A stretch of 64,000 nucleotides of DNA from Takakia lepidozioides (lineage: Eukaryota; Plantae; Bryophyta). The stretch is from NCBI GenBank assembly GCA_030704615.1, contig CM060732.1, forward strand, positions 38,316,001 to 38,380,000, read 5' to 3'. This document shows positions 14,861-38,609 of this stretch, piece by piece. The notes beneath the pieces are model-generated. The model ran no database searches and was not told the DNA's origin. It saw only the letters and a list, made by a program, of their open reading frames with translations. The first letter of the stretch is position 1, and every line of letters begins with the position of its first letter. The translations under genes and the position numbers were made by a program.

Positions 14861-17800
14861 TTAACAGCTTGTAAGATCGTTAGGTGGTGGACGACAACAC
14901 TGATTGTTAATAATATGTATATCAACTTACGTTTGTGTGGCTGTTCTTAATCGATTCAATATATCCGTGAACTGGGTATCTGATTGACGCATAACTTGGT
15001 TTTAGCTTATAACATGTAATAAAATCATGCCAAATTTTTTGAGCTAATGAAGCTGGTCCTTCATTTATTTTCTTAAAAAACCCAAGAATCTCTCAAAGGT
15101 GATGCTTGATAAAAAAATCTCCAGTAATTATGACTTCTAGGTTTCCGAAAAAATGATAGTGTATGCGTGTGATTGACCTTAATCGCATGTCGGCAAATGT
15201 AAACATTATGTTGCCAATATGTCGTTAAAATTGATTTTCGTTTCAATGGATCAGAGCTCTTTCGGATGTCTATCATATATTTTAAGTAAAGTAGCGATAA
15301 AGTGAATGTCTTCCCAGTGCCTGCTCCTCCTGTCAAAAATAAATGTATTGGTACTTCTTGGGATATATATTTTCTGTGTAAACAATCATAAAAAATAGCA
15401 CGTTGTTCTTGATTGAGTTTACGTAATTGTCCATAGAACTCACAATTTGGAATAATGTTGTCTGATGTATTACATGTATTAGCCTCGGCCCTCGGGTATT
15501 GTCGGGTTTACAATGGAATTCTGTATTTATATCATATGGTTCAATTTGTGCAAAGTTTGTGAATGGATGAATTGGACCACTATCGTCAACACCTACAAAT
15601 GTGTCCATCCATATATTACTATGTTTTGCTAATTCATGAGCTTTTGATTCTAAATTTGTCCAATCCGTTAGGTTATCTTCCACAAAAGTAAATACAAATT
15701 TCTTCTGAATAAGTAATATAAATGATTTATGTATCATGCCTAGTCGCATGGTTATGTTTTTGTGATTCTTCAATATTTTGAAACGGATGAAATAATATTT
15801 ATTGTTCTCAACAAAAAAATTCAAGATCACAGTGCTCATTAGAGTGGACATATCGAAAGATATGTGATTTTTTGCGACAAGTGATTTTGTAGTCCACAAT
15901 AAATTCTGCTAAAGCTAAGTTAGGTAGTGTATCTGGACAATCAATATATTTATCAATAGGAGATGCACATTTAATATCATTAGAATTAGGTGGAAGTTTT
16001 TGTAGTATTTTATCGGGTTTTAATACAAATGCACATTCTTATGATGAGAATATATTTATGAATCTAAAAGTTCGAGATGCATGATAAAGGGGTATTGCAA
16101 CATGATGGATGTTGCTAATTGAGCTGACATCTGTTGAGCATTTAAAAACGCATTACATATCTTACGAATTCTTACATTAACATCAACTTGATTATTGAGC
16201 ATTTATTTATTATAAACCGAAATTTATTTGTAATATTTTTATCCATTTTTGTTAGATAAGACGTACAATAACTGACTGCAGCATATGGATCGAACATAAA
16301 TTGTGTGTCAGTATAGGCTTACCAAATATTGCCGCCTGATTGCTAAAAATATTTGTATGAATATCTTTATATACTCTTTTTAAAAATATTTTTGATTTTC
16401 TCAATCGACTCCGTAAAATTCTTATATATGTGTCTATTTTTAAATTAAATAACGCAATAAATCCGTCGAATGAAACATTTGTATTAACATCCATTGTATG
16501 TAGTGTATCAAATATATCGTCTTGTATCGTTGTCATCTAAGTCGTGTTGAAAATATTCTAAAATCATAGTTGAATGTATGGGAGGTATGAGAGGTAATGT
16601 ATGGATTATGAAAACGACATATTGCTTGATTTTTTTCCTTCAAGTTTGTTTGTGTCGATGTATTTGAGCTTCAGGAAGAAGAACATTGTCACATATAATA
16701 TAAGTATCTATTAAGGTTGTGATTTCATCATTACTATGTTTATCATAAATTGGTGCATTTGCTATCCATAACATACTGTGGTTATGTTCTCTTCCTCTGC
16801 TTTGAAATTCAGTGACAAAGAAGTAGTCTTGTACATGACCAAAAATACTTGGATATTTTTTACATAAATCTCTAAATGCTCCCATTCTATTATCATAGTA
16901 ATGTACACAAGTAAGGGGATCTGATCGAATCAATTCAGCAACGTGTTTACGTTCTAAATAATCTATGCTACTAGGAATTTCTAAACTTTCGTGATTGAGT
17001 ATATGTAAAGCTTTTAATAATGGTGACTATTTGCTTTCCGCGCTTGTGAATGTGACAAAAAATGTAGGCGGTCCTAATTGTCGAATCATTGTGAAAATAT
17101 CTTTGCGTAATCGAGCGGCGAACCAAATAATCAGGTGATGTTCGTAGTCTTTCTAAATATCTATAACCCAAATCTGAATACAATAATTTATCTACATTAG
17201 GTTTGTTAGTTAGTTCTTATACTTTTTATTGTCTACCTTTAAGTTTGTCTTTCCAAATGTGTATCCAAGATGATTACGTGACTATATGTATCATTATTTT
17301 AATCGCTTTGAAAAATAGGTTAGGAATGTGAGCGGCGAAATTGTGGTCTTTATGCAAAAGTTTAATAAGACAATTTCAAACAATTAGGTTTTTGACGAGG
17401 AAGACCAAAAAATAGAGTTGGAAAATTTAATTCTTGGCTACAGATATCGTAGAAAAGACCTATGGTTTAAAATATTGACTAGGTGCGACAGTCAAAATCT
17501 CATCGATATTTGAATTTATTCATAATTTAGGATATTTTGAACTAATGTATCGGTTACTACATTTTTTTTCGACTTCTTCAAAATTGTCTGTGGAATGTTC
17601 TTGAAAGTCTACTAGAAGATTGCAATAATCTGTTGATCGTTGTTCTTGTATTTGTTGAGATGTGGCAAATAGATTTGACCATTGTGGACGAATAGTGACA
17701 TAGTTTTCTATGTATAATGGTGTATTGACGAGATCGTATAAAGCACTCATGATAGAGTTAGGGCGGACATTACCTGATAAGTACGGAGATTTGTATTTTA

Positions 17801-20012: not shown

Positions 20013-20092
20013 AATAGGGGCCACCCTCGAAAGGGGACAATAGCAGTGGCTCTTAGTTACGTTGGCTTCGCCCGGAGTCTTCTCTCTCTCTC
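20013..20092 (+). mobile_element. 80-bp hairpin-rich short interspersed element, copy 1
   Basis: Direct repeat TGTCTATA at 20005-20012 and 20093-20100; CCCTC-GAAA-GGGG hairpin; (CT)n 3' tail; homologous to 43889-43977. Confidence 0.7.
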
Positions 20093-20396: not shown

Positions 20397-22474
20397 GTGA
20401 AGGGCGTAGATATACAAGTTACTCCGCAGTATTTGCAACAGCTTTTTGAATTACCATCTGGTAATGTGAGCGTGGATGAACACAGGGCAAGATTGCAAGT
20501 AGGGGATCTTTTCCAAGAAACGAGTTTCTTCAGGAACCAGGGATTCACTTGTACCAAAGATCTTGACAACGCTCTCCACAATTTGCAACAACAAATTTTA
20601 GGACCTATACGACTTCGAATTCTTCAAATAGGTCATGATCTTTCGGCTGTAGGCCATTCGGCTTCAACAAAACAATGGAATTGATATCCAGGGACTATTG
20701 GTGGCCGCAGATGTGGAAACTCGTGAAAGAATTTATAAAATCTTGCGACACGTGTGCTAGAGCAAAGAGACCACGACATCGACCTTACGGCCTTCTTCAA
20801 CCATTACCCATTCCATAGTCGTCCGTGTCTATGGACTTTATTACGGACCTTCCAATTTCCAAGACCACCGATTCAATCATTGTTATTGTGGATCGTTTTA
20901 CGAAGATGACATATTTCATTCTATGTAATAAGACGGTTACCGGCGAGAAAACTGCAAGACTCTTCCTCAATAATATCTATCGCAGTCATGGACTCGCGAA
21001 GGACATCGTATCTGATCGATGACCACAGTTCATATCAAATTTCTGGAGGGGATTATTTCACATATTGGATACTAAAATCAACATCTCTACAACTAATTAT
21101 CCACAAACTGATGGTCAAACCGAACGTGTAAAACCAGATTTTGGAGCAATATCTTCGCTGTACGATAAATTATCACCAAGATAATTGGAGGGACCTTCTG
21201 CCATTGGTTGAGTTTGCCTACAACAACACTATACATTTTTCGACCAAACAAACTCCATTTTTCTCCAATTATGGCATCATCCTCGAGCAAACCCTTTCCA
21301 CATGAAGACTGTTGGAAGCCATGTTGAGGAAAACCTTGCTAATCATCTTGCTACGATTCACAAGAAGCTTACATTCTATCTCGCAGAAGCTCAAAAACAA
21401 TACAATGAGTATGCAGGTCAACATTGACAACTTCAACCCCAGTTCAAGGTCGAAGATCGTATGTGGCTTCTTCAACGGGACATACAAACCTCGCGACCAT
21501 CAATAAAGTTGGTATCAACGCCTGAGACCATTCAAAATTATTCGACAAATAAATCCGGTCAGTTTTCGGCTTGAACTCCCACGAAGTATGCGCATCCATC
21601 CAATCTTTCATGTTTCATTATTGAAGTTGTATTATCCATCGAATATTCCAAGGAGAGTTTCCGTACCACCTCCACCAATCGAAGTCAATCCGGGAATCGA
21701 GTATGAAGTCGACGAAGTCTTAGCCTCTAGCATCAAGTATAAACGTCTTGAGTATTTTGTACATTGAAAAGGCTACGACATCAGCGAACGAACGTGCGAA
21801 CCTTCATCCAACCTCGCTAATGCATCTGACAAAGTCCAAGAGTTTCATCAACAATATTCAGCTAAGCCCCGAGCTACACGTCAATAAGACGTCACAACGA
21901 TGATGTCAGCCAAGTTAGTTTCAAGGTGAAGACTCCTCATTCAGTGTATCTGATACACGCTAACGAGGGATGAGCACCCCACATCAGTGTATATAGCTAC
22001 ACTTCCAGCTCTCTTGTATCTTGTATTGGCAGCATTGAGTCATAGGAACCAGATACATTGGAGCTGTCGCTTACCCAACTACCAGATCAATCGTTCCAAC
22101 TCTCACGACCTTCAACATCACGCCGACGCTCTCGAGACGATGGGCCACCAATGCGACGGATACTTCCTCGTCTGGACCTCGTACGATGGCAAGTGGAACC
22201 TACTCGAAGTCTGATAATCATGTTGGAGGTTGAGGCAATGAAATCATATTTGAAGACAACTTCGAATATCAAAATGCTCAAATCACTGCGTGGTCCCAAG
22301 TTCAAGGTGTTCGACACTATCGATGGTTGCAGGGACCTATAAATCATTTGAGTCAAGAACGAAGAGCCGAATACTTGACAAATACCATTCGTTGGATTTT
22401 GGATTTTCTCCAACTCTAAGCAAGTCCAAGATTTTACCGCTCCTCGATGAACTTGACGCTAGAGGAAGGGGTGA
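20397..22474 (+). mobile_element. Ty3/Gypsy chromovirus, 5'-truncated internal region (integrase, chromodomain, PPT)
   Basis: Integrase [41 protein letters not shown]; chromodomain [24 protein letters not shown] (~21700-21880); PPT AGAGGAAGGGG at 22461-22471; many stops. Confidence 0.9.
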
Positions 22475-22994: not shown

Positions 22995-24013
22995 CAGGGA
23001 TGCCTCGGCGTGAGCCTGGTCACGTGAGTGCAACTGCGCTCACGCCACGTCACCTTGCGCAAATGCCACGTCACGGGGCTCATTCCACGTCATCACACGT
23101 GAAGGCCGCGTCACCACGCGCCCAGAAAGAAGTGGAGTGTATTCCCGCGGATTGACACCCTTTACCGCGGAAACAAGCTGGACGACATAATAAAAGGCAT
23201 TGAATAAATGATGGATGAATATACAGTTGGATGATAAACAGATAGATGAGTGTGAAAAATGAATGTAGATGGATGAATGAGGGATGGATAAGAGTAAAAT
23301 GGATGAATGTATAATGGATGTTGAGCAATGACAAAAATTCATAACAGGAAGATGCATGACCAAAACTTTTGACGAATGCACAACGTATATGAAATGAGTG
23401 TGGAAGGTTTGTGGGGTGGATTAAAGAGTACATATGATGAATGTACAATGGATGTTGAACAAAGGAAAAAATTCATGAATGGAGCACGCATGAATACACT
23501 GTAGATGAATGCACAATGGATATGAGAAGAGTCAGGGAGGTTTGTGAGATGGATTCATACATATTGCAATTTAAATGAAAGTTGATTATGTGATTATTAT
23601 TTGTTCTAAAAGAACAACTACGGTGGAGGAAGGGGATTCAACGTTTTCCAGATAGTATGAAAATGAATATTAAAAGAATACAGTTCAGTCTGACTCAGAG
23701 TCAGTACAATGTATCCCCGCTTCCTCTGCATCTAAGTCTAAGTATTTTAGAACACCGGATCCACGCTGGATACACCTACGGCTGGCCACTAAAAAGTCAG
23801 GGGATAGGGACTCGGCCGCGTGACGTGCCATTGCTTTGGCATAAACAGGAAGCAGAAAATTGGAAAGGGGGCTATCGAAAATAGACTCGCCAGAAATGAC
23901 TGTATCTCCTGAAGATCCACCGTTGCCTTTCCTGAAAGACAGCCTGAAAAAGTTATTACTGTAACTTTGATGTTATTGAGAATTGAGTATGACTCCCAAA
24001 GAGGGTTTAACAC

Positions 24014-27000
24014 TTACTCACATGAAAAGTCGTTGTCGACCTGCTTATCTTCGGGATCGTCATCATTTCGAATTTGAATCCGATCAGTCTGTGTGCCTGA
24101 AGTGGAGCCAGACAAAAGGGGGGGGAGCACTATGTTGTAGAGGTCAGAATCACCCTCCATGCCAAAAAGGTTGAAAAAAAACCAATTCGGAAGGGAAAGA
24201 ACGAACCTGTGGACACAGAAAGATCGACCACCCGTGTAGAGCGGTGGCTGCATGACTCCAGCAGTATTTGCATGAACGCTGGGGACTTTTCATTTGCACC
24301 TCTCCAGGGAGTGTCATCTGGTCTCTTCAGAGTCTGACTGGATTGCATGAAGTTGTACAAAATGTCATCAACATGGGGCTCATAGGGGGGGTTGACGAAA
24401 CAACCCTGGTCAGAAATCTCAAAGCTGCGGATGGAGGATGGTGTCTTTGAGGTGCGAATCCTCCGCAGGCAGATCGCCTCGAACATCCTCGTCTGCCAAA
24501 GATAGCAGGTTAGTGTGGTAAACACAATCTATAGTGGAAGTGTGTACATCGGCTATTCAGAACTCAGACACAAAAAAATCATTTTTATCACGAATCGGTG
24601 ATGATCGGTGTCGATCATAACAGATTCTACTAGAGTGGAGCTGCAGAGAACATTGAAACTCATCATAAAAGCACAAGCAGAAGGGAGACGGCATACCAGC
24701 TGACCCCCGAAACCCCCTTTCACAAGGTAGAGGCTGTTCACACAATTTCATGTGCGCAAAACTTCAAACCCTGAAGACTTGAGGTATGATGCCAATGCCC
24801 GACGACTATCATTGTCACATGACTAAAAAAGCAGAAATGTCCCTGTATCAGAGAGGAAGTTATTACAGAACCCGAACACCCAACTCCAGTAGTTGTCCTC
24901 GAATTTGTTCCAGCCTGGCGTCTTGCCCTTTAGAAGAATTTCTGGCACAGCCTGGCCATCCGGGATGTCGATAATGACAATGTCGGCCGCATAAGTTTTC
25001 TGCACACCGCACACGAAGGTGAGACCTGTGCTCACCTGCAACAAACATGTTTTTTATAAGAACGAAAGCAAGAATGTTTTCAAAGAACGAGACTGAAATA
25101 CTGCCAACGAAACTTTCAGAGAAAAAGGAAAGAAACTGGAATTCTCACCAGATTGAGGAATGAGATTATATTGTCCCAGGTAGGCGATGGCACCCCAGTG
25201 TATCCTCTCTTTCGACTCTGCATCATTGACAGCCAACCCTCATTAACAATTTTCATCTCTCCTGCCGAATCAGAACGGGAAGGGTGTGGCTTGGCATCGA
25301 ACACGCACTGAACAGTGCGGGTATATCTTCCAGCAGTAAAGTCCTGCCCACTCTCCATCTCCTTTTCTTTCTCCTTCCTCTTGTCATTTTCCTTCTCTTT
25401 GGACTTGTCTTTGTCCTTTGGCTTTGCTAGTGAGATGGCTATGACATCAACAGCCTTGTCTTTTGGTTTGCGGCCCGCCTTCTTTCCCTTCTGCAGCGTT
25501 CCCTGAGCATCAGGCTCCTTGGCAGCCAATGTTGCTATGTTTCGTTGGTACTCTTCGTCAGTCAAAGGCGCCAGCGTCTCAGCGTTATTGTTCAAGTATT
25601 TCATATGCTGTTCTTGAAAGGTCGTGTGCTCCAGTGGGCAGTCAAGGTACCACCCACAGTCTCTGAAGTGAGAAGGACTCCAGTCCTTCAATATCCCTGC
25701 AGTATACATGGTTGGATCGTTTGCAGGGTCCGACCACATGTCAAGATAGTCTGGAATTCTGCTCAGGTGATTTCCTTCCATAAGCACATATTTCGTGTAC
25801 CTGAAAAAAGGAGATAAATCCCAACCCACAAAAGCGCTCAGTGAGTAAGATGCAAGTAGAACAGAATGAAAAAAACATAGATTGAAAAGGCTCTGAGAAC
25901 TGCTCCAAGGACCTTTCAAGACCACACGAATGCTCCAGATATGAATGTCGTCAACACCATTCAAAACATTCCATTCAATGATACTGTAAATACACCCTAA
26001 TCCAGGTGAATGCAAACTATCGTTTTGGAATGACACAGACATAGAAGTGAATGTCGTCAACAACATTCACTAATCAAGCCTAATTATTCCTCAAATGAAG
26101 CAAAATCACAGGATGGAAATCATAAACTCGAGTAAGGAACCCTCCAGGAAAACTCAATGCACATTCATAACGAACATATCACTGAGGACCTCACAACAAC
26201 ACTGTATGTGAATGGCGTCAATGCCATTCACAAAAATACCAACAAGGAACCAATTACTTAGTTCCCAATCCATGTAAATTCAAATTGTCGTTGTTGAATA
26301 ATACAGACACAGAAGTGAATGTCGTCAACGACATTCACTTTGGATTTCTCATAACAGAGCTTATCAAGCCTCCAGATTCCTCGCAAGAGGCAAAAACAAT
26401 GCAGAACAACTGAATGTCTGCATTGACATTCAGCAAAATGAAGTGAGGAACCCTCACTGTAACCTCTATGGACATTACAAAAATTTACATAACTCTGAGG
26501 ACCTCTCAACAACTCCGGATGTGAATGTCATCAACGCCATTCAAGGACATTATCAATTCTAATCAGGGACACTATAATTACACCCTTAGATCCTAACCAG
26601 GTGAATTCATATACTCGCTTAAGAATGACTCAGACAAATAAGTGAATGTCGTCAACGACATTCAATCTGGATCTATGATTGCAATCCTTATGAAGCCATA
26701 TTTTTTCCCAAAAAAAGCAGTAGAGTTTCAAGTATGACATTGCACCTGTATACAACTCGCATCATGGCCCACTCTCCTCCAACCTGACTGTCAAAGTCGT
26801 TGGACCGTAAAATGTTACCATCTTTGGAGAACTCCCGGAAAAAACAGTATCTCCAGGTGAGACCTCTCCACTTCCTTATGTATGCCTCCAATGACATTTG
26901 GGGAGGGGAAACAATCGAAATGTTCAGGTCCTTCAAAGTCTGATCCAGCACAATGACGGTGCGCTTTTCGAGCTGCAAATAGTATATTTGTCAGAATTGC

Positions 27001-27997
27001 AAATAAGATACTCATCACATACTGAAGAGAAGAAAACGGCATGTTTGAATACACACCTGACTCCAAAATGTAGCCTTGTGGAGCCAGTTATCAAACACCA
27101 AATCACTGATTCCTTCCACCTTTGTGCCAGGCGGTATGGTGCTCTTTGGGAACTGATTCAAGTCTTTTACTGTTTGATCTGAGTTCCATATCTCCAGCCA
27201 CCTTATTTTTGTTTGTGGGTCGACCATCGATATGGCCAGCCGGTGCAATTTCTCCTGCTGCATCTCCGGATGCACATGCTTGTCATAATGTGTTTTGATC
27301 TGCTGAAGGAACTCAGGACCAAGTCCAGGATCTACTATTCTAAGTTGCTTTCCGAAGGCGGACATCAATTTGGTTCTTCGCATTTCAAACTCCTTTTTTA
27401 TTGCAGCTTCCACACCCTTTGATGTCCTTAGTTCCTCTGGTGTAGTGCGGTAATATTCGGATTTTCCCTTCTCAGCTGCCTCTGCCAGTTCTTGCTGCAT
27501 TGATTCAAGTAGTGATTAGCTCCGAAGGGACTACAAACATGTATTCGAAAAGTAAACAGAGTACAGACTCGGGCTTACCGCATACATGTACTCCAGAAAC
27601 GCCTCTCGTGTCAAAGAATACCAAGTGCCTGCAGCTCTTCATGTTTCGCACTGCTTGATGATATTGGGTGGTAGTACTGTCCGAAAATCATCCAGCTTCA
27701 TCAGACCAATCCTCTGAATTCGGAATAGTGTGTGAACCAAGCTTGTTGTCACATGCGATTTCTCTGTCGATCTGTAAAAACATTGGAAACATTGCATTCC
27801 TTAACACTGTTTTTTGAGGATTAATAAGACACTACAGAGGGAATGAAATCTCCTGGATGACTTACTTGTTCACGTCGTGCATAGCTGTAAGAAGCCTAGC
27901 GATGTCGTTTCCAGGATCCAAAACCATTGCCTCCATAGCAACATGCTTGTCTTTGTCTTTCGCATGGTGTTTCTGAATGTATCCCATCCATGCCAGC
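24014..27997 (-). pseudogene. 3' exons of the element-borne gene ending in an N6-adenine/N4-cytosine DNA-methyltransferase-like domain (beta-class order)
   Basis: ADIVIIDIPD at the motif IV position (~24960-24990); PWRGANEKSPAFMQILLESCS (motif X-like); VVDLSVSTGS (motif I-like); LFGMEGDSDLY (motif II-like); GT-AG bounded exons; some stops and frameshifts. Confidence 0.65.
25942..26664. repeat. Array of six copies of a 22-bp palindrome TGAATGTCGT-CA-ACGACATTCA within a degenerate ~270-330-bp tandem unit
   Basis: Copies at 25942, 26048, 26209, 26316 (perfect 13-bp arms, 26313-26340), 26522 and 26643. Confidence 0.85.
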
Positions 27998-28692
27998 TGT
28001 CGTGCGCATACATATCGCTACACAACTACATCGTTGTCCAAAACCACACAACACATGTGCACACCACACACTAGTATACCACTAGTCTACCACTAGTCCA
28101 GCCACTAGTCCAACCACTAGGCTACAACTAGTCAGTCACTAGGCTGCCCACTATGGCAGTCACTAGTCCACACAATGATAAAGAAGAAGAATACAAGCAC
28201 AAGCTCATGCGAGCTCACAAAGCTGAAGCATAAACTCATGCATATATAACCTCATCACTCAAATACAAGTCAAGCCAAGTGCACCCCACGCCATGGGGAA
28301 TCCACACTACGGCGCCATAGCTAGGCGCGGTGAGGCTCAACTCGAGAAAGATGAGCCTCCCGCGCTTGCCGTGAAGATAACCACTCCAGGGCCTAAATCT
28401 GCCTTGACCCCTGGATTGACACTTGGGCCAATCCCAAATGTCAATATGTAAAAGCTAGCTATTTCCTAGCTAGTTTCACACTAGTGGTAAAATAACTTGA
28501 CAGCTGTCGTGCGCATACATATCGCTACACAACTACATCGCTGTCCAAAACCACACAACACATGTGCACACCACACACTAGTATACCACTAGTCTACCAC
28601 TAGTCCAGCCACTAGTCCAACCACTAGGCTACAACTAGTCAGTCACTAGGCTGCCACTACGCTGCCCACTATGGCAGTCACTAGTCCACACA
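27998..28692 (-). repeat. 3' LTR region of the DNMT-bearing Gypsy element, with a ~185-bp internal direct duplication
   Basis: Minus-strand PPT-like AGGGGGCGAT then TGTGTGG at 28692; ends CGACA at 27998; 27994-28176 nearly identical to 28501-28694; TATATA in the middle block. Confidence 0.7.
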
Positions 28693-28952
28693 ATCGCCCC
28701 CCTAGCTGCTGCTTAGGTCCCTCTAAGTCCAGGTAGCCACAAGATGTGATAGTGACCATAGCCTCACTAAGTCCTCCACCACTATCCCTACTACACTCAA
28801 ACTCGATAGATCAAGAGGCCGGGTGCAAGAGTTGCCCCATCGTTAGTCGCCGTCTTGCAACCTGTGAACTTGAGCTTGGGATCTCATGTATTGACTCCTA
28901 TGAGCTTGGCCTCCCATGTCTTGTTAGCTGCCTCCAGTCATGTCCACTGCCA

Positions 28953-30230
28953 CTATCCCAAGCAGTGTGGACACAACCAATCTCCGTCAGGAACCTTCTC
29001 AAGAGGTGGTGTCAAGCATCCCATATGCCAACCCCTTGAGCACCGATCACACACCAGCATGGTGGCTGCCCCTTTGGCAGACCCACAGAGCATGCACCTC
29101 AAACCTGCAGGTACCACTGCCAAGTTTGGGTCAACTCTGCCATCGACATTGGGAAGGTGACATGGCGCACAATTACGCACATGGTCTTTCCAAGTCATGC
29201 CATCCCGACCCTCTAAGATCAGGACCCCTGAGGGCAACACCTCTCGAACCCTCAGAATAACACGCCCTGCAGTAATATCCAGAGTCGTAGGAGCAGTCTG
29301 CTGCAAATAAACATAGTCACCAGGGCTAAACCTCCGAACCCCATGACGATATCCTCCACCACGTATAGTGGCATACCTCAACGTATCACGGTGCTGTGCA
29401 ATGGCAAGGTTCTCAAAAGCCATGGGCATGACTTTCTTGAACAACTCTGCACGCTGATCACATGCACGTACCCACACGTCCGGATCGTCAAGGTTAAGGA
29501 CTTGAGCAGTGTCCCTACGAATGGCTGCAGGCAAATCCGGCTCTCGGCCAAAGAGAAGGAAATATGGTGAGAAGGAGGCAAGTGATGCTTGTTTGCTGAA
29601 CCTGTAGCCCATGGCTAACCAAGGAACCTGAAGATCCCAATCTCCTAGGTGTCCCTTCTGCAAGCCATACTTGCGCAAACCCCTCTTCACCGTCTGAACA
29701 ACTCTCTCTGCTAAGCCATCGGCCTCAGGATGATCCGAGAAGTGGTGCGGTGGTCTATCAAGGCTTTATCACACAAAGCCTGAAACTCCCCCAAGAACTC
29801 TCTCCCTTGGTCCGTGAGTACCTCAGCTGGAGCACCAAATCGGCTAAGCACACGATCCAAGAATGCATACGCAGCCCCCTCACTAGCCTTGTCAGGCAAT
29901 GGAACCAACTCAATCCACTTGGAGAAGTGCTCCACCATCACCAACACATATCTGTGGTGGCGCATAGTCAGTGGCAACGGTCCTGCGAAGTCAAGACTCC
30001 ATCTGTAGCCCAATCCCATGATAGGTAAAGGATGCAACTGTGGTGTAGGGGCGTTAAATGAAGCACGCACCCTGTCACACACCATGCACCTAGCCACAAA
30101 CTGTTGCACCTCTGTATGCATACCACACCACCAATACTGCCCCTGCAGTAAACTGTGAGTGCGTCGCACTCCAAAATGCCCCAACTCCTCATGGGCATGC
30201 CGCACTAACCGTGCACGCTGTACAGTGCTG
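28953..30230 (-). CDS. Integrase with C-terminal PHD finger
   Basis: HAHEELGHFG..CMVC; SLDFAGP, VLTDQGREF; C4HC3 pattern CMLC..CDRC..H..C..WLCPHC at ~28955-29105. Confidence 0.9.
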
Positions 30231-30599
30231 GCAGGCAGTGGGTGTGTTGCTGAATGGAGGAGGAGGGGCTAGATATGAAGCACAATACTCACCCGACCAT
30301 CCTCCCACACTCGAAGTAGGTGTATCCCCTCCCACTTGAACCTCTTGGCTCGTTGCAGGATCCGATCCCTCTCCCTGGCAGTCACAATGGCTGCCGTGTC
30401 TCCCGTGCGGAGGTAGTCCAACACAGCCGAATCCTCATGTATATCTCTGGCACCACCTAGCTCATCACTAGCCTCAGGGTCCTCAGACACTCCGTCTACA
30501 GTCATCCCTGTTGTAGGTCCAATCTGACCTCCCGATGCCAAGATACACAAAAATGCAGATGCGTGCCATCCCGGCACCATCTCCTCGTCCGTCTCACCA

Positions 30600-32030
30600 T
30601 GCCACCGAGCTCCAGTGTCATCCTGCTGGCTCATGCATGGATTGCGACTCAATCCATCCGCATCCCGATTGACCAAACCCGGTCGATGCACAACCTGAAA
30701 GTCATACTCCTGGAGTATAAAGTGCCCACCGTGCAAGCTTCCCCGTAAGCTTGTCTGACTCCATCAACCACTTGAGTGGCTGGTGATCCGTGACAAGGGT
30801 GAAAAGATTGCCGTATAGATAGCACCTGAAGTGTGCCACGGCCCACACTGCAGCTAAGCACTCTCCCTCATATGAGCTGTACTTAGCCTCTGCAGCGTTG
30901 TTCGAGCGGCTAGCGTAAGCCACTACGAACTCTCTTCCCTCATCATCCACCTGTGTGAGCACCGCTCCAAGCCCCAGCATGCTCCAATCCGTATGCAGCT
31001 GAAAGGGACGCCCCCTGATAGGTCGTCTCAAGATAGGCGCCGAGGTCAACCTCGCCTTGAGCTCTTGAAAAGCTCGTTCCTGCTCATCTTCCCACTGCCA
31101 CTCCTGGTCCACCTTGGTCAGCTTGGTTAGAGCCTTTGCAATGGTACTAAATCCCTTGACAAACCGTCTATAATAGTTTGCCAACCCCATGAAAGCTCGA
31201 ACTCGGCTCACATCCGTGGGGCGTGGAATTTGTGCAATGGCCTCTACCTTAGTCTGCTGTACCCCCAATCCTCCAGGATATATCATGTGACCCAGATACT
31301 CAATCTGGTTGTGGAAAAACTTGCACTTCCCCGGATGCAACTTCAATCCGTGCGCTCTCAAGCGCTCCAATACCACCTGAAGGTGTCTCTCATGCTCCTC
31401 CATCGTAACACTAAAGATGATGATGTCATCTATGTAGCACCGAGCAAAGTCCACCCCTGCTAGAATCCTATCCATGACTCTCTGAAACTCTGCAGGAGCA
31501 TTCTTAAGCCCAAATGGTAAGAACCGCCACTGATATAGGCAATCCTTGCCGTGCTCATTGATCCCCAGAATGCCGTCTTCTGCTTGTCCGCCTCCTTGAT
31601 TGGCAACTGGTGATATCCGGATCGTAAATCCAAAGTGCTAAAGGCCTTAGCATGCCCGATGGCATCAAAGATCTCCTCTGGTGTTGGCATGGCATACTTA
31701 TCGGACTTGGTCTGACGATTTACAGGCCGGTAATCACCGCACATACGTCTCTCCGTCCAATTGCCATAGACATCCTTCTTGGCTGGCATCACTGTGGCTG
31801 AAGCATACTCTCCACCAGAGAGCTCCACCAAACCTGCCTCCCAGAGATCTTGAGTCCTCATCTGAATCAAAGACCTCTCCATGTCACTGTATCTATAGGG
31901 TCTCCGAAAGATTGGCGTGTCAGTGGCCAACTCAATACGGATCTCTTGACCCTTCAGTGCTCCCAAGTCCTTCAAACTGAAGGCAAAGCAATTCCTGTAA
32001 GCCCTCAGGAACCGCCGTATACGTCGTCTC
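30600..32030 (-). CDS. Reverse transcriptase and RNase H, frameshifted
   Basis: RMCGDYRPVN, FSTLDLRSGYHQL, PFGLKNAP, CYIDDIIIFS, YLGH, FMGLANYYRRFV, LHTDWS, VTDHQPLKWL. Confidence 0.95.
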
Positions 32031-32439
32031 TCTCCTCCGGTGACAATGGGTCCAATGTCAGGCTCCCAATTGTCCTCCGTAACTACAACCTTAAGTCCAG
32101 TGGGCTTAGAGGTAGAGGACGCGTCCCGTGGTTGCTATGCTGCAACCTCTTGAGCAGTACTCCTACCTGCTCAGTCAATGACAAGGCATCATCCTGCCCC
32201 ATCATCTCATCCTTGAGGACCTCCTCAACTCGAGAAGAATCCCCAACCTCATCCATCACAGCCGCCTTGGCTGCCAACTCCCTCTGAACTCGAGCACCTC
32301 CCACGTGTGCCATGGATGCATGCACCCCGTGGTCCTCATATGCTCGCCCCACTCACTGCCTGTACCGTCTCGGTAGGCAGAGAGACCATTGAGGGAAGTG
32401 TATTCCGCACTCTGCGTTGCTCAGCTAGAGCCAAGCTGA

Positions 32440-33400
32440 TAATCCAGGTCAAGCAATTGAGATCCATTGCTTGCCCCAACACTTGACGACGTGATGCCTC
32501 AGAAAGAGACGACACCGCCGTGGTACCAGTGGTAAAACCCATTGCCCGCTCACGCTCGTCAGCATTAGGCTCCACTAACTGCTGCAACTGAGCATCCCAC
32601 AGGAGGCCAGGTCCACTATCCCGGAAAGCATGCGATCCTGGGAAGCTGAGCAGTGTAGGTAATGCTGCTCGTGGTTGACCCACCTTGTTGACCACTGCCA
32701 AAGGCGAACGGTCATCGTGTCTCACACGTTGAGACTGCCTCCCTGTGTCCAGAATGTTATCCACTGTGAGATGTGCTGGCCGCTGCACCCCATCAAATGC
32801 ACGCTTGAGCAGTGCGGGTGGCATCATGTTAGTCCACCATAGCCGTGGACGATGAGCCCGTGACCCCACTGTAGCTGCATCTAGCAACACTGCTGACCCA
32901 AGCCACGACCGGACTTGATGCACACTGGCCATCACCCTGGCCCGAGAATCGCCCATCAGTGGCACATTCTCCAAGATGTATGCTGGAGATACAGCTTGAT
33001 GAAGCTGCAAGTGGCGCAAAACCCGCACCATCTCCCAAAACAGACCCGACCTCGAGTCTCGCAATCCATTGCCATGCCCGGCTGATGAATGCCCTTGGCA
33101 GGGCCAACCTGCCACTACCAGATCAATGGAGCCAACCCGCTCCAAATCCTGCGCCCCAGCAACGAAATGTCTGCTGGCAAGGCCTGCTGATATCCACGAA
33201 TTGCAGACACCGACAACAACTCAGGGTACCGCTGCACCAACTGAGCAACATGGCGAAGTGAAACGCGTCGTGCAGTCTCATCCCTCTCCACATACAGGTA
33301 ACGCCGAACTCGTACACCTGCCTGTAACACAGCAGCCAATCCGGTGCTGATCCCGCCAAACAAGTCCAGAAGACAAATGCCTTCATCCGGATACTGCCAC
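32440..33400 (-). CDS. C5 cytosine DNA methyltransferase domain, DNMT3-like, inside the retrotransposon polyprotein
   Basis: Motif I LLDLFGGISTG; II YVERD; IV VAGWPCQG (catalytic PC); VI ILENV; VIII RPRLWWTN; IX ERERAMGF..GTT; X RRQVLGQAM; one frameshift near 33150. Confidence 0.93.
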
Positions 33401-33779
33401 ACAATAGGTGTGGTGTCCAATGGAGACAATTGAGGTGGTCCTGGTGCAATCCCCACACTCTCCTCCTCTCCTGACGGTACAAAAGCCTCCACCCAGGCTT
33501 GTTGCACCCGTCGATCAGCATCCCGCTGCAAATCCTTGCTCGTGCCCCACAATGGAGTCTGAGCAACCATGGTAGGCAACTCCGCCATACCATACATGTC
33601 ATCCTGCTCTCCCGGAGGTGGTACATCCTCCTCAAGCAACTCTCTAGGCCAACTCACTGCCGCTGTGAATGCTGCTAGTGTCGGCATCTTGCCTCGCTGG
33701 GCAACCGCAACTCCTCCTATGAACGTCACAGGGAGCTGCACACGCCGGCCCTCCCCTGACTGCCATGCAGGCCTATAGG

Positions 33780-34095
33780 AAGCTGACTCCTCCCAAAAAT
33801 CCAGGGTGAAGCCCATGGGGTACAACACTGCCCCACCAACCAGGACATCGTATGAGACTGCGTCTGTCACAATGGCCTTGGCTCGCATCACTGAGCCATC
33901 TGTAGGGTGATCCGGCCGTAGTCTGATAGCCAACTCATGCCGTGTCATGCCCCGAGCCTGCTCCGATCCTCCAGAGACGTCTGTATCTGGAAAGGACAAG
34001 GCTCCATATCCGCCTCCGTGAGGCCCAAGCCTGCAATAGCAGCTCTGCCCAGCATCAGTGGCTGAGCTCCCGAGTCCAACAAGACCGCAGTGCCA
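33780..34095 (-). CDS. Retroviral-type aspartic protease
   Basis: VLLDSGAQPLMLG (~34050-34085) and YDVLVGGAVLYPMGFTLDF; frameshift between them. Confidence 0.8.
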
Positions 34096-34849
34096 GTGGC
34101 CGGTACCTCTTGCCTGCCGGTCCACTCAAACAGAAAATGCCATCCTGGTTGTCTAACATGACAACTCCAGGTGTCACCATGGCGCGCTCAATGGCTGGCC
34201 TAGCTGGCAGCTCCATCAACCTGGCAGCTGCAGCTTGCCATGGCGCCGCCGTGGCAGTCTTGACCCTCAAATCCGAGGATCCCTCCGGCACTACACCTCC
34301 CACTATCTCCGCAGAAGATGAAGTAACCTCCCCACTCTCACAGAGTGTAGCTGCCAGCCTGAACACCTCAGCTGGTCTTACCCCCGGCGTCGCAATCATG
34401 GTAGCCGAGAACAATGGAGCCTGGCACACAGATGTGGCCGCTCCTAGCAGCACACTAGCTGCCGTAGCCTTGGCAACACTAGGTAGTGGTGCTACCCGTG
34501 TAGCTCTCCCCAATGGCATAGTAACCTCCGCCTCGGTAACAGTCGGGCGAGAACTAGGTGCCATGGATGGCGTCGACACTGTCTCCGCCAATGTGAATGA
34601 CTGAGGAAGCCTAGCCTGACGGCTTGCCTCCCCACGCTGTGGATCCAACTCCACCTCTGCACCTCGTGGCTCAGGAACTCGTGCTGCTCCTCGAGTCACG
34701 GCTGCAGCAGACTCCACCTGCACTAGTGGTAGTGCTGCTCCACACATGAATCCCATGCCTCCCATATCTCCTCCCTCAGGAGCAGGAGGTGGACCATCCG
34801 CCTTAGAGCCGGTACCACCTGAGCTGTAGCCATGGCAGCGAGCCTCTGC

Positions 34850-36255
34850 TCTAGCTGCTGAAGCCGGTTGGCCATGCCTTGGTCAACACCCTGACCTCCG
34901 CGTCCTTGGCCACGTTGAGCTTGCCTTGGCCTGCACCTCGTGGCTGGCCACCTCGTCCTCTCTGGGCTGCTCCACCTCGCCCCCGGCCACCATTGTTCCC
35001 TTGGAACTGGCCTGGGCGCAACTCAGGATGCAAAACCATAACACTGAGCCTCTCCATGCCCGTGTTTGCCACAATGCCAACACTAAACTGTGCAGGCTGT
35101 GCATGTGCCGGCCCTTTGCCTCCCTCTGGACAATCCTTTTGACATGGGGTCCTCCACATGTCCAGCACACCACATCCGCCCGTTGTTGGCCAGCAAATGA
35201 AGGAGAGACCCCTGCATCTGAGGTCCTCTCTGCCCTTCCTGAGCTTCACTGAGCCCCCTTGTTGCCTTGAGCACGTTGAGGTAGTGGTTGGCTAGGAGCA
35301 CCACTACCCCGTGGTGTCTCCTTAGCAAATCCCACCATGACCACTCGTTCCTCCACCATGTTGAGCTCTATCCGCTCTGCAGCAAAAACACATTTGCTAA
35401 GGTGGGTGGGGCCGCTTGTAGGAGAGTTGCATCCCGCACCCTTCTCCTCAGCTCCTTGTCCAATATCCCATACCAGAATTGGACTGCCTGAGCTTCCGTA
35501 ACCCTTGGGTTACATTTATCAAGCGCCTCATGCGAGTGAAAGCCTCCCTCAAGCTCTCGGTCGGCTTCCGTTGGAACTCTTGCAAGCTCCGCAACTTCTC
35601 TGTCCTCACCCCTTGGTAGTTCCCTCTCAACTCTTCGAAAGAACTCCACAACAGGGTTGAAGGCAGGCACGGGTGCTAGTGCTGGTGCGGTAGTGGCTTG
35701 GGTGGACGTCGTAGCTATGTGTACCACCAGTCCCAATGTGGCTTGCTGAAGCTCCGGTGCAGCGGCAGGGGTGTAGCCACTGCCCTCGTGGCTCTAGTGC
35801 CCCTAGTGATGGAGACATAGTCGGGTGACCAGTACTCTCCACTCCTCGATCTCAACCTCATGCCCCCGCTGAACTCATGGTAATCATCATAGGCGGCCCC
35901 TCAAGGTGTGCTGAAACAGCCCCTTCCATGCCATGAAAGGCGTAAATAGTTGTGGATTGCGCATTGCTGCAAATCACACCAAACTATCAAACTCTTGGAT
36001 AAAATCATCCAACTCGATGGTGCCCACCGCCCAGAGTATCTTCGTGGCCCCTTGGTAGCTCCATACATCTCCCTCCATTGTGCCCAAACAATGGCAAAGA
36101 AACAACGCACCGCCGGTATGAGTCCTCCGATTCACAATCCGAATCAGAACCATTCCGTAGAAGACACCAGGAGGTGAAGGGGGCCCTAACCCGCACACCT
36201 CGTCTCGTGTACCCACTAGTATCGCTAGTGCTCGAACCGGCACTGTCCCCAGCAA
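34850..36255 (-). CDS. Gag (capsid-like plus two CCHC-type knuckles), frameshifted
   Basis: ELDDFIQEFD; KLRSLQEFQRKPTESLREAFTRMRRLI; CWTCGGPH..DCP and CWHCGKHGHGEAQC; RG-rich tail. Confidence 0.78.
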
Positions 36256-36989
36256 CTAGTGGCACCTACGTGTGACACTTCAACCGGTCCAGAAACATGT
36301 CCCTACCCCCTCTTCACAAGGTAACCGGGAGAGAACTGTTGCGGCTTATGGTTTGGAATACTAAGTTTCCTAACATAGCCACACATGTACCTGCATCCAC
36401 CACAAGCACTCCTATGGTTGGCTGGTCATCACCTCCCACCTCACCACAGAGAAACAATGATGGTCTGGCTGGTCATCACCCCAGCCTCACCATCGACAGA
36501 TGCTCATAGCGAGCTGGCCGGTGATCAAATCGGACCATACCTATGCAAGGAAAGCCCAAGCGACTCACCACACAAACTAGCACGAGGAGGCTAACAGTCA
36601 AGCATGCAGGTATGGAGGGGATCCAAACACAAGAAATCAGATCGACAACTCCCCCACACCAAAAACAACTCCACGGTGTTGCTCCTGCAAGGACACCCCA
36701 GCCCAAAACCCGGACTGACTCTTGCCTCCACCTACGGAAAGGTCTTGGCCTAATGAGAGGGTGGAAACTACGAGGAAGAGAAGCTAAAGCAATGCCTAAC
36801 CCCAGCATGCTCTCATCCCAACACTCTGCCTCTCCTCTACCCTCACTTGCATGACCATGGGAATATCATGAAGATACTCCTCAAACCGCCCTCCACGAGC
36901 TTCAAATTCGGCCTTCCAGACCACATGCCAGTCCTTAGGCAGTCCACCAGTGCCTCCACGAGTCAGCACAGGCCGTCCACAGGTCAACA

Positions 36990-38385
36990 CGGGCCACCAC
37001 AGACCAGCACAGGCCCACACAGCTCACTGGTCACAGCCGTCACAGTCCCACAGGCCACTGGGCACAGCCTGTCGCAGCCCTCATCACAGCCTCAAAGGCC
37101 TCAGGCACGGTCACAGCCCTCACAGCCCCTCACAGCCCCAAAGGCCACACGGCCTGTCACAGCCCCTCACAGCCCTCACAGCCCCAAAGGCCTCAGGCAC
37201 GGCCTGTCACAGCCCCTCACAGCCTCAAAGGCCTCACGGCCTGTCACAGCAGCCCGTCACAGCCCCAAAGGCCATGTCACAGCCCCTCACAGCCCGTCAC
37301 AGCCCCAAGGCCTCAGGCACGGCCTGTCACAGCCCCTCACAGCCCCTCACAGCCCCAAAGGCCAGGCACGGCCTGTCACAGCCCCTCACAGCCCGTGTCA
37401 CAGCCCCTCACAGCCGTCACAGCCTCATGGCACAGCCTGTCACAGGTCACATCACAGCCTGTCATCACAGCCCGTCACAGCCTCAAAGGCCTAGGCACGG
37501 CCTGTCACAGCCCTCACAGCCCGTCACAGCCCCAAAGGCCAGGGCACAGCCCCTGGGCACACAGCCCGTCACAGCCCCTCACAGCCCGTCACAGCCCAGG
37601 GCACAGGGCACAGCCTCACAGCCCTCACAGCCCGTCACAGCCCCAAAGGCAGGCACGGCCTGTCAAGCCCTCACAGCCCGTCACAGCCTCAAAGCCTCAG
37701 GCACGGCCTGTCACAGCCTCACAGCCCGTCAAAGGCCTCAGGCACGGCTGTCACAGCCCCTCAGCCCGTCACAGCCCCAAAGGCCATGGGCACGGCCTGT
37801 CACAGCCCACAGCCCACAGGCCTCAGGGCACAGCCTGTCACAACAGCCCGTCACAGCCCCAAGGCCACTGGGCACAGCCTGTCACAGCCTGTCACAGCCC
37901 ATCCCTTGTGTCACAGCCCGTCACAGCCCGTCACAGCTCCACAGGGCACAGGGCACAGCCTGTCAGCCCATCACAGCTTGCCACAGCCGCCCCACAGGCC
38001 ACTGGGCACAGCCTGTCACAGCCGTCACAGCTCGCCACAGCCTGACACAGCCGTTCACAGCCCTCACAGCCCGTCACAGCCCCAAGGCCAGCCTGTCACA
38101 GCCCCTCACAGCCGTCACAGCCTCAAAGGCCTCAGGCAGTCACAGCCCTCACAGCCCGTCACAGCCTCAAAGGCAGGCAGGCCTGTCACAGCCGTCACAC
38201 GGCCTGTCACAGCCCCTCACAGCCTCACAGGCCTCAGGCACGGCCTGTCACAGCTGTCATAGCCCGTCATAGCCCAAAGGCCATGGGCACAGCCGGTCAC
38301 AGCCCTCACAGCTCGCCACAGCCTGACACAGCCCGTCACAGCTTGCCACAGCCCGTCATAGCTTGCCACAGCCTGTCACAGCCCC
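36990..38385. repeat. ~1.4-kb minisatellite built on TCACAGCC(C/T) units in the retroelement leader
   Basis: Dense reiteration of cacagccc / gtcacagcc / aaaggcctcaggcacggcct with a loose ~50-65-bp higher-order unit. Confidence 0.95.
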
Positions 38386-38609
38386 ACACATGGCCGCTCT
38401 GGCAGTTTAGCCATTTCTCCAAGGGGTTTAGCCACGCCAAGCTAGGGTTTTGTCTCTTGGACTCTAGGCTTCTTTCCACCAAGCTATGGTGGCTGTGAGG
38501 AAATCAGCAAGGTATCCTTGCTCTTTCGGCTCCCACACACCACCATAGTAGCCCTAAGTCATGAGGTGGTTGCCACAAACCAAGCCTTCTTTCTCACTTA
38601 GCCTCCCCA

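Follow-up and report, generated by a model that had tools for sequence, protein, structure and literature searches.

A conserved array of palindromes in an intron of a high-copy gene family of Takakia lepidozioides: possible docking sites for a protein of the same family

Seven 22-nt palindromes, spanning 25942-26664 of the 64,000-nucleotide stretch of Takakia lepidozioides DNA that was analysed (the window), lie inside an intron of a spliced gene that belongs to a very high-copy repeat family, and they are much better kept than the DNA around them. A second, degenerate cluster of the same motif is found 12.4 kb upstream on the transcribed strand. Our tentative reading is that a sequence-specific protein docks on these reiterated palindromes, the gene that bears them being the predicted source of that protein.

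A search for TGAATGTCGTCAACGACATTCA with up to three mismatches rendered six sites (25942, 26048, 26209, 26316, 26522 and 26643), with a match in none of 100 shuffles, while the looser pattern TGAATGNC-N6-GNCATTCA rendered seven palindromes where 0.01 would be expected, the additional one being at 26411 and having an altered centre. The array that had been noticed in the preliminary description of the window, where six palindromes were counted, is thus real, but the count has to be raised to seven, and the observation is confirmed in a stronger form than originally stated. The copies are spaced ca. 95-160 bp apart. Unit A of the repeat in which they are embedded holds one palindrome of type P1 (25942-25963) and one of type P2 (26048-26069); unit B holds a P1 palindrome (26209-26230, the G..C variant), a perfect P2 palindrome whose symmetry, with its flanks, reaches 26 nt (26316-26337) and a P3 palindrome with 8-nt arms and an altered centre, which was missing from the earlier list (26411-26432); and unit C holds a P1 palindrome (26522-26543) and a second perfect one of type P2 (26643-26664). 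As judged from loose ends of contigs, unit A of other family copies also holds a P3 palindrome, lost from the window by deletion. Within the motif, invariance is greatest in the outer TGAATG arms. A scan for the exact pattern gave no matches in metagenome contigs and none in viral contigs, and its sole match in a genome contig, one of Amycolatopsis (L002), was taken as chance.

The entire array is contained in a 945-nt GT..AG intron of phase 2 on the minus strand (25801-26745), defined by a joint in one contig of run X12, by its splice sites and by the open frame. The exons on either side of this intron are joined in that X12 contig and in no DNA contig, and the two GT..AG joints that were identified are present in X12 contigs and in none of the DNA contigs; X12 is guessed to be RNA, none of the listed runs containing this stretch being recorded as such. 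The earlier proposal that the array lies inside a gene is therefore borne out, with the precision that it occupies an intron. The gene, which is multi-exon and runs on the minus strand from at least 27758 to 23721, has an open frame of 497 codons over four exons. It includes exon 2 (27057-27494, 146 aa), exon 3 (26746-26972), exon 4 (25149-25800, with a Lys/Asp/Glu-rich low-complexity stretch) and exon 5 (24754-24999), all on the minus strand, the last being aligned to residues 432-512 of a long relative, P0081, and carrying a stop at 24825-24823 in this copy. Further minus-strand stretches resemble exons: one upstream (27577-27758), with similarity to the N-terminal ends of two relatives, P0002 and P0037, and interrupted in this copy by an in-frame TGA (27641-27639), and two downstream, at 24202-24378 (P0081 565-623, 41% identity over 59 aa, E 1.5e-8) and 23721-23882 (P0081 695-746, 35% identity, E 8e-4). 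The exon that is joined upstream of 27494 in the X12 contig was not found in the window, nor were other X12 loose ends. Given the joints exclusive to X12, the 497-codon open frame and a gene family of 118 relatives, the array-bearing gene is real and, with X12 taken as RNA, expressed in the family.

The location of the whole array within a transcribed and spliced intron (again from run X12, guessed to be RNA) would fit a role in RNA, in which the copies, folded into hairpins or paired with one another, would govern how efficiently the intron is spliced or give rise to small RNAs from the element's transcript. Single copies can form hairpins of 9 to 12 bp, the intron folds to -288.7 kcal/mol against -250.1 kcal/mol for shuffles (z -5.6; not reached by any of 20 shuffles), and the centre CA has one orientation in six of the seven intron copies. 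Such a fold score is, however, trivial given seven self-complementary copies. Moreover, the symmetry of the palindromes is not strictly maintained, the pairing between motif positions 7 and 16 being broken in five of ten copies (seven from the intron and three from upstream), and overall pairing exceeds that of column shuffles modestly (80.0% vs 75.6%, a value reached by 20 of 500). The upstream copies, which precede the ATG at 38964 and so are outside the array intron, fold no better than shuffles (z -1.1), and the comparison with Rfam was negative, at E up to 1 for 24.5-28 kb and at gathering score for the whole window. We consider a role in RNA quite unlikely. As for the copy at 26209, which had been described as having both arms changed with symmetry kept, the G..C pair is real, but it is a single instance: across the same ten copies this arm pair is T..A in four, G..C in one and unsymmetrical in five.

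The palindromes are part of a tandem repeat (25880-26720) made of three higher-order units of ca. 270-330 bp, which are in turn built of ca. 105-bp subunits, and between subunit types only the palindromes are kept. Across the three units, a pairwise identity of 122/133 in the motif columns compares with 429/706 in the rest; of the ungapped columns, 39 of 44 are invariant in the motifs and 96 of 216 elsewhere (Fisher p 3e-8), and the sole block with at least nine of ten columns invariant is a palindrome. Between differing subunit types, identity was 84.5% in the motifs (279/330) and 40.7% in the flanks (444/1090). The palindromes also stand out among family copies. The 33 polymorphic places, taken from the 40 of 67 variants that were listed, all lie outside the 154 bases of the motifs (P 0.0013), and with the same 33 places only 4 of 841 circular shifts are as free of polymorphism in the motifs, a deficit that would lose significance if at least seven of the 27 unlisted variants fell in motifs. 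Variants were listed above a threshold of 10%, and contigs fitting several of the seven sites could push motif variants below it; in run X1, 141 of 2245 contigs fit two places. Constraint across the family is also suggested by the summed depth in X1, which was highest in motif-holding bins (e.g., 614421 at 26315-26343, with 208726-242512 in the adjacent bins). With the above limit on the comparison among copies, the earlier statement that the copies are better kept than the adjoining DNA holds both within the window and across the family.

The CpG content of the motif points in the same direction. Each canonical site has two CpGs, and the observed/expected ratio of CpG is 1.32 in the motifs and 0.32 in the remainder of the intron. 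The window itself differs from the family at three motif positions, with A instead of G at 25956 (the copy at 25942), T instead of C at 26222 (that at 26209) and A instead of G at 26530 (that at 26522). All three are CpG-to-TpG/CpA changes, and the window's letter is in each case absent from more than 99% of the family depth, so that the family retains CpGs that have been lost in this copy.

These data bear on the possibility that the array is a by-product, that is, an ordinary internal or intronic tandem repeat with no sequence-specific role, in which hairpin-seeded slippage, gene conversion and youth mimic conservation. Tandem arrays with no known function are, according to the accounts in PMC11963269 and PMC7004042, common within plant retrotransposons. 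The number of units differs among family copies, the joints found in DNA runs skipping 269, 298, 321 or 601 bases or going back 330. The family is, moreover, of very high copy number, 7189 DNA contigs aligning to 3 kb of the region, and since 2699 of these are at least 99% alike it is young; the conservation of the palindromes is partly due to this youth, the copies descending from few master copies. Youth cannot, however, account for the conservation of the motif, since the flanks have diverged to 40.7% identity between subunit types while the palindromes stay at 84.5%. Gene conversion would have to be limited to 22 bp at seven places and to include a diverged cluster 12 kb away, which is strained, and the persistence of CpGs in the motifs and not beside them also argues against a by-product. 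Such an origin thus appears unlikely.

A weight-matrix scan of the 64 kb rendered three sites as the best matches outside the intron, all within 300 bp of one another: 39137-39158 (22.8 bits, the top one), 39347-39368 (17.3 bits) and 39062-39083 (17.1 bits). The top scores of 30 block shuffles had a mean of 13.4 and a maximum of 20.7. The degenerate copies that had been noted at ca. 39062, 39137 and 39347 are therefore real. A weaker motif-like site at 39452-39473 (10.0 bits) is in a 173-bp repeat (39229-39290 / 39402-39463), and the fifth-best matrix match, at 21839, is within chromodomain coding sequence. The second cluster is separated from the array by a 10-kb Gypsy-DNMT3 retrotransposon. 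At 100-400 nt downstream of it there is an ATG-led ORF on the minus strand (38638-38964), with no family or PDB match, which is a candidate exon and is probably what the preliminary description called a ParB-like exon.

The presence of the motif in an intron and directly upstream of an ATG-led ORF would also be expected if array and upstream cluster were an enhancer, intronic and upstream, recognised by a host transcription factor and exploited by the element. TGACG, which is the core of plant bZIP (TGA-factor) sites, is present in each copy on the transcribed strand, and the CpG content would permit methylation-sensitive control. Nevertheless, the 22-26 bp that are conserved extend far beyond typical plant factor sites, the outer TGAATG arms being the most invariant part, and, the two clusters apart, no match in the 64 kb rises above the shuffle range. 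A host factor as the reader of these sites is, in our view, rather improbable.

The nature of the encoded protein, which has no curated family, was approached through its relatives. P0081 is collinear with the exons of the window, and its residues 597-646 gave a match to PF01555 (N6_N4_Mtase), at profile positions 168-217 of 221, with an E of 0.015 and 15.7 bits, below the cut-off of 26.7; the exon-like stretch at 24202-24378 overlaps this region. Beta-class amino-methylases have a catalytic DPPY-type motif upstream of the SAM-binding motif. The place of the former is presumably occupied in the window by ADIVIIDIPDG, in exon 5; by eye, it is found at the expected distance before the matched stretch, as is IDMIFADAPEG in P0081, and the motif looks degenerate. 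The window's own exons had no match to PF01555 at E up to 10, and sequence searches of NCBIfam and the PDB gave nothing for the methylase likeness of P0081. Hence, of the methylase assignment made earlier, a weak part stands, that is, the sub-threshold match of P0081 to which the window aligns, but the array gene itself has no Pfam family.

No support was obtained for the ParB part of that assignment: no ParB family appeared in Pfam scans of the ORFs over 18-46 kb and of the relatives, and the ORF at 38638-38964 had no match to the PDB by sequence. An AF2 model of P0081 (44 rows) was confident for residues 1-125 only, the methylase-like part having a pLDDT below 50. The confident part is an all-helical domain, the counterpart of exon 2, to which no fold could be assigned by Foldseek against the PDB (best E 1.0) and for which a broader structure search gave no clear fold match (best Z 5.0, DnaA domain III). 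The ParB DNA-binding domain ranked 25th against it (Z 3.7, rmsd 6.1), which is not meaningful. A single-sequence AF2 model of exon 2 (pLDDT 45.6) was set aside. No DNA-binding domain was detected in any exon. Searches for homologues of exon 2 gave none among longer proteins and one Logan protein (P0001) among those of similar length, none were found for the exon 4 protein, and the ESM Atlas gave no usable match for either exon. In Pfam scans of 20 relatives at E up to 0.01, RMD1-3 was matched in P0017 (E 0.0084, sub-threshold) and animal-type domains in P0112; the latter are a spurious low-complexity match. A metagenome locus retrieved with exon 2 (L001) was rejected as a relative, being a bacterial contig matched by one peptide word.

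A strong C5 methylase is encoded at 32336-33220, its top PDB matches being DNMT3A (E 1.2e-7). Judged from the sequence, it is a domain of the separate Gypsy-DNMT3 retrotransposon and not of the array gene: one strand carries DNA_methylase, RVT_1, RT_RNaseH, Integrase_H2C2, rve and PHD domains (Pfam), alongside which gag-like, zinc-knuckle and DSG protease stretches can be recognised by eye. The array is 2.2 kb past the PHD end of this retrotransposon, in DNA of lower G+C content (0.42-0.46 vs 0.51-0.60), and its intron belongs to a separate spliced gene with relatives of its own. No LTR pair was found in the window by self-BLAST, in agreement with the DIRS-like repeat structure described for KnitGypsy-Dnmt3 (PMC5890265). 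A plus-strand integrase nearby (H2C2, rve, SH3; 20639-21900) ends in a stretch that by eye is chromodomain-like, which suggests a chromovirus rather than the Tat/Retand lineage. The idea that the array lies in the 3' region of a Retand-type element was dropped on account of this ending and of the matrix match at 21839, which is in that coding stretch. A tRNA-Met primer-binding motif gave chance-level matches alone, and the profile of CpG observed/expected along the window did not delimit an element.

The two clusters of one motif lie towards opposite sides of a large element-like region, and they could be cis-elements for mobility. En/Spm and Ac have subterminal motifs to which the transposase binds, and the palindromes would be transposase-binding repeats of that kind. 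Against this, no transposase domain was found by Pfam in 18-46 kb apart from retroelement integrases, a comparison of 21.8-24.9 kb with 39.5-40.8 kb revealed no terminal inverted repeats, and at least 2 kb separate the array from the last mapped exon of the gene, so that it is not subterminal on that side. The sole SWIM-like stretch (41821-42348, plus strand, E 0.022) is not accompanied by a transposase core. A function in mobility is accordingly highly improbable.

The docking-site reading rests on the constraint seen within the window and in the family, the retention of CpGs, the second cluster upstream, the reality of the gene, the likeness of P0081 and the precedents discussed below. Counting against it are the failure to detect a DNA-binding or ParB domain in any exon, the sub-threshold level of the methylase match, the imperfect symmetry of the copies and the youth of the family. 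A dimeric or otherwise two-fold symmetric reader would recognise half-sites of 10 to 12 bp, TGAATG(T/G)CGT, and this reader may be the element's own methylase-like protein. It could serve to let the family recognise its own copies, whether to activate them, to protect them from silencing or to mark them, by analogy with the VANC sites in VANDAL introns and with what has been proposed for the inverted-repeat arrays by PAG3 in red-algal Plavaka. With two CpGs per canonical site, cytosine methylation could then control such binding. A bolder version, which we put forward as decidedly doubtful, is that of a private self-recognition module of a land-plant mobile element, in which a diverged and possibly catalytically dead amino-methylase-like protein reads the CpG-bearing palindrome, arrayed in the intron of its own gene and upstream, and thereby marks or reactivates thousands of copies in a methylation-sensitive manner. 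If true, it would give the red-algal PAG idea a counterpart in plants and would stand beside VANC as a second, unrelated solution.

To our knowledge, the molecular detail of how abundant transposons recognise their own copies is available for very few systems, in plants mainly for VANC of Arabidopsis. The window provides a testable candidate, namely a sharply delimited and constrained 22-bp palindrome, in a family of very high copy number and recent activity that has a conserved accessory gene. Should the protein bind the site, the design of a private motif array plus its own reader would reach another plant lineage and another type of protein, a land-plant case would stand beside the red-algal PAG proposal, and the two CpGs would tie host methylation directly to the self-recognition of the element. 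Should binding fail, the array would still be a record of strong selection acting on a short palindrome within a fast-evolving tandem repeat, for which a different explanation would be required.

Bacterial ParB/parS relies on 16-bp parS sites, and fusion proteins of ParB with a methylase exist. The likeness is that palindromic sites (seven intronic and at least three upstream) are reiterated in cis to an amino-methylase-like gene. The Takakia gene, in contrast, is eukaryotic and intron-bearing, no ParB domain was detected in it, and its sites are of 22 bp instead of 16 bp. With the Tat/Retand/Ogre lineages of Ty3 elements, the window shares a family-specific tandem array that adjoins an accessory ORF in a high-copy plant element (PMC11963269; PMC7004042). 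In those elements, the arrays between pol and the 3' LTR are stated in the same sources to be of unknown function, and antisense ORFs are present. However, the array of the window is inside a spliced intron, its units are of ca. 105 and 300 bp, compared with the 8-100 bp reported there, and Transposase_28 (PF04195), the domain of the antisense ORF, had no match in the window scans.

In VANDAL21, tandem repeats of VANC21 motifs are described from introns of two genes, VANC21 and VANB21, and from the DNA that precedes VANA21 (Hosaka et al., PMC5735166). The analogy with VANC drawn in the preliminary description is sustained as regards this layout, since the window also has motif arrays in tandem repeats of an intron and in upstream non-coding DNA. 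In both cases the motifs are dense, the tandem repeats are in introns of the element's own genes as well as upstream, and the number of repeats varies, the VANC sites being protein-bound. On the other hand, VANC motifs are reported to be of 8-9 bp, non-palindromic and arrayed in a single orientation (PMC5735166; PMC10398659), whereas the motif of the window is palindromic, spans 22-26 bp and has two CpGs, and neither a MULE transposase nor a VANC-type protein was found, MULE, Transposase_mut and DUF1985 having no match in 18-46 kb.

The red-algal Plavaka elements, of EnSpm/CACTA type, carry PAG2, which combines a PF01555 N6-adenine methylase with SET, and PAG3, with a ParB-like N-terminus and a 2OG oxygenase, to which inverted-repeat tandem arrays adjoin; binding of the element's own DNA is proposed by the authors of that work, with no bench test (bioRxiv 10.1101/2025.02.11.637652). 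Compared with the PAG cassette as described there, the Takakia host is a land plant, the array is in an intron of the methylase-like gene instead of beside a ParB-like one, and no ParB, SET or 2OG domain and no DDE transposase were found in the window. The two cases nevertheless have in common that a highly abundant mobile family carries an accessory gene together with inverted-repeat tandem arrays, and that a likeness to PF01555-type methylases is present in the accessory gene set, the match being sub-threshold in the case of Takakia.

A scan of the window for the pattern TGAATGTCGTCAACGACATTCA, allowing up to three mismatches, found six places (25942, 26048, 26209, 26316, 26522 and 26643), and 100 shuffles rendered no match. 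A pattern restricted to the outer arms matched seven times versus 0.01 expected, adding a copy at 26411 in which the centre is changed. These scans confirm the palindromic array claimed in the preliminary description, with seven copies instead of six. In several copies the palindrome extends to 26 nt once the flanks are counted. The palindromes are embedded in three tandem units (A, B and C), spaced by 268 and 327 bp and composed of subunits of ca. 105 bp with one palindrome each; to judge from the loose ends of further copies in the family, unit A normally has a third palindrome, lost from the window by deletion. Ca. 25 nt ahead of each palindrome of the P1 subunit type (26174-26200, 26487-26513 and 25907-25925) lies another short near-palindrome, TGAGGACCTC, retained in units B and C and worn in unit A.

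The array is real, intronic, family-wide and under constraint. The motif had been said to be better conserved than its surroundings, and this holds: comparison of the three units gave pairwise identity in 122 of 133 motif columns versus 429 of 706 elsewhere, and 39 of the 44 ungapped motif columns were invariant versus 96 of 216 elsewhere (Fisher p 3e-8). Only one block, a palindrome, reached 9 or more invariant columns out of 10. Between different types among the seven subunits, the motif is 84.5% alike (279/330) and the flanks 40.7% (444/1090), so that the palindrome has been retained between flanks whose resemblance is now little above noise. The CpG observed/expected ratio is 1.32 in the motifs versus 0.32 in the remaining intron. 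The symmetry itself is kept only loosely, since overall arm pairing is 80.0% versus 75.6% in column shuffles, 20 of 500 of which reach 80.0%. A copy with both arms changed in a symmetrical manner does exist at 26209, where G..C replaces T..A, but in the ten copies (seven intronic, three upstream) that position pair is T..A in four, G..C in one and unsymmetrical in five. It seems unlikely that the array is a repeat without function that owes its shape to turnover driven by hairpins.

The location of the array inside a gene, also claimed previously, is supported by a contig of X12, a run guessed to be RNA, that joins 25798 to 26744 and skips 945 bases with minus-strand GT..AG borders. In another X12 contig, 149 bases are skipped between 24999 and 25149; both joints are absent from the contigs of X1 and X5, which are DNA runs. 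The exons (27494-27057, 26972-26746, 25800-25149 and 24999 onwards) form an open frame of 497 codons with canonical donor and acceptor sites, and the array is thus intronic on the minus strand. A role of the palindromes at the RNA level is distinctly unlikely in our estimation.

The region 24800-27800 belongs to a family of very high copy number: it is matched by 7189 X1 contigs, 2699 of them at least 99% alike and 2803 95-99% alike, with a summed X1 word depth of 113727-473410 across all 30 bins; the stretch is also present in X5, a "plant metagenome". Variation among family copies was analyzed in four runs over 25880-26720, where depth was highest in the motif-holding bins; the analysis covered 40 of 67 variant rows, corresponding to 39 places. 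At six of these places the window differs from at least 99% of the family depth; three of the six fall in motifs (25956, 26222 and 26530), all being CpG-to-TpG/CpA changes private to the window's copy, and the family majority at these sites reads TGAATG(T/G)CGTCAACGCCATTCA. The remaining 33 places vary from copy to copy, all of them outside the 154 motif bases (P 0.0013 on the 40 of 67 rows; significance would be lost if at least 7 of the other 27 fell in motifs); when the motif mask was shifted circularly, 4 of 841 placements did as well as the real one. That the palindromes serve in cis for transposition appears very improbable.

For the exons, Pfam gave no family with E ≤ 1, and no solved structure was matched by sequence. 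Exon 2, as query of a full HMMER search, rendered 118 relatives with E ≤ 0.001 (27 with E ≤ 1e-10), mostly ORF-sized fragments. When 20 relatives were scanned with Pfam, the only matches with E ≤ 0.01 were a sub-threshold RMD1-3 match (P0017) and animal-type domains in P0112, which was rejected as a spurious match. A long relative of 758 aa, P0081, is collinear with the minus strand of the window: residues 1-187 align with 27413-26745, 432-512 with 24999-24754, 565-623 with 24378-24202 (41% identity, E 1.5e-8) and 695-746 with 23882-23721. Upstream similarity reaches ca. 27758 through the relatives P0002 and P0037, which gives the gene a minimum extent from 27758 to 23721. The window's copy is decayed: it is interrupted by a TGA (27641-27639) and by a further stop (24825-24823), where the frame of the relatives continues. 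AF2 with a 44-row alignment gave a confident all-helical model for P0081 1-125, the exon-2 domain (block pLDDT 82-98; rest <50), with no clear fold match (best Foldseek E 1.0, best Z 5.0).

Regarding the methylase assignment, residues 597-646 of P0081 do weakly match PF01555 (N6_N4_Mtase; profile positions 168-217 of 221) at E 0.015, but the 15.7 bits are under the cut-off of 26.7, and NCBIfam and PDB sequence searches gave nothing. At what we take to be the place of the catalytic DPPY, judged by eye from the motifs of the family, P0081 has IDMIFADAPEG and the window ADIVIIDIPDG. The likeness may serve as a lead, not as family membership. Our favoured but tentative reading, possible though short of probable, is that the array provides DNA docking sites for a protein; the predicted reader of the palindromes would be the methylase-like product of the element itself.

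A weight matrix built from six copies was scanned across the whole 64 kb, with 30 block shuffles as control. The best matches outside the intron were those previously proposed as an upstream echo, at 39137 (22.8 bits), 39347 (17.3) and 39062 (17.1), all within 300 bp of one another; the best scores of the shuffles averaged 13.4, with a maximum of 20.7. The echo is thus real but degenerate, and weaker motif-like sites lie beside it inside a 173-bp repeat. It is distinctly unlikely that these palindromes, in the intron and upstream, are enhancer sites for a host factor. Just downstream of the echo, the ORF 38638-38964, starting with ATG, is probably the "ParB-like exon" of the preliminary description; it has no Pfam or PDB match, and no ParB family appeared in any Pfam scan run, so the ParB assignment is unsupported at the sequence level; the upstream exons are short and interrupted. 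A possible host gene, divergent from the echo region, consists of three ORFs at 40773-42348 (plus strand, ATG at 40773) that include an acidic stretch rich in Ser/Asp and weakly match a SWIM zinc finger (E 0.022); CpG is undepleted at 39-41 kb (observed/expected 0.86-0.92).

A C5 DNA_methylase (32336-33220, minus strand), clearly matched and with DNMT3A as closest solved relatives (E 1.2e-7), is flanked by gag-like and protease-like stretches recognized by eye on one side and by RVT_1, RNase H, integrase and PHD finger (Pfam) on the other. It lies in a decayed minus-strand retrotransposon in several frames (28953-35793, with 36872-38400 and 27991-28694), whose order is gag-like with zinc knuckle, protease-like, DNMT3-like C5 methylase, RT, RNase H and integrase with terminal PHD finger. 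By its domains it is a Gypsy-DNMT3 element, a type known from Klebsormidium (PMC5890265). No LTR pair was found for it in the window, which fits the DIRS-like repeats, not LTRs, reported in that paper. A 1.4-kb (GTCACAGCCC)n array lies upstream of the element, and (CACTAGTCTAC)n runs and a 163-bp duplicate (27991/28498, 98% identical) downstream. The element is rich in G+C (0.51-0.60 versus 0.42-0.46). Since it sits between the echo and the array-bearing exons, it is most simply regarded as a nested insertion.

A direct repeat of 78-88 nt (20014-20091 and 43891-43978; identity 74% in 88 aligned columns, distance 23.9 kb) brackets the whole studied region, with a TATA-like word ahead of one copy. 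Elsewhere, a long open frame at 6990-9845 (minus strand) encodes a 952-aa PPR protein with an E motif, whose internal repeats are the window's strongest self-matches; Helitron-like fragments (Helitron_like_N, weak PIF1) with a weak endonuclease-reverse transcriptase match lie at 15076-17026 and 12004-12360 (both minus); and host-gene-like ORFs at 54458-55414 (minus), 60069-61874 (minus) and 45779-46873 (plus) match DUF4378, VARLMGL and B_lectin. The PPR protein and these ORFs mark the window as land-plant DNA.

A literature search found no comparable palindrome array in a land-plant element, which does not in itself establish absence. Retand and Ogre retrotransposons have tandem arrays together with antisense ORFs, their function being unknown according to PMC11963269 and PMC7004042. 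Membership in this group was rejected because the only nearby opposite-strand integrase, in a Ty3-type fragment at 20639-21900 (plus strand; Integrase_H2C2, rve, SH3_Tf2-1) of which all parts ahead of the integrase are missing, terminates in a chromodomain-like stretch that contains an in-frame stop. A Bostrychia genome preprint (10.1101/2025.02.11.637652) reports inverted-repeat tandem arrays adjoining PAG3 (ParB-like plus 2OG oxygenase) and a PF01555 methylase domain in PAG2, and proposes binding to the element's own DNA. VANC21, according to Hosaka et al. (PMC5735166) and PMC10398659, binds a 9-bp motif present in tandem-repeat arrays in the introns of VANC21 and VANB21 and upstream of VANA21.
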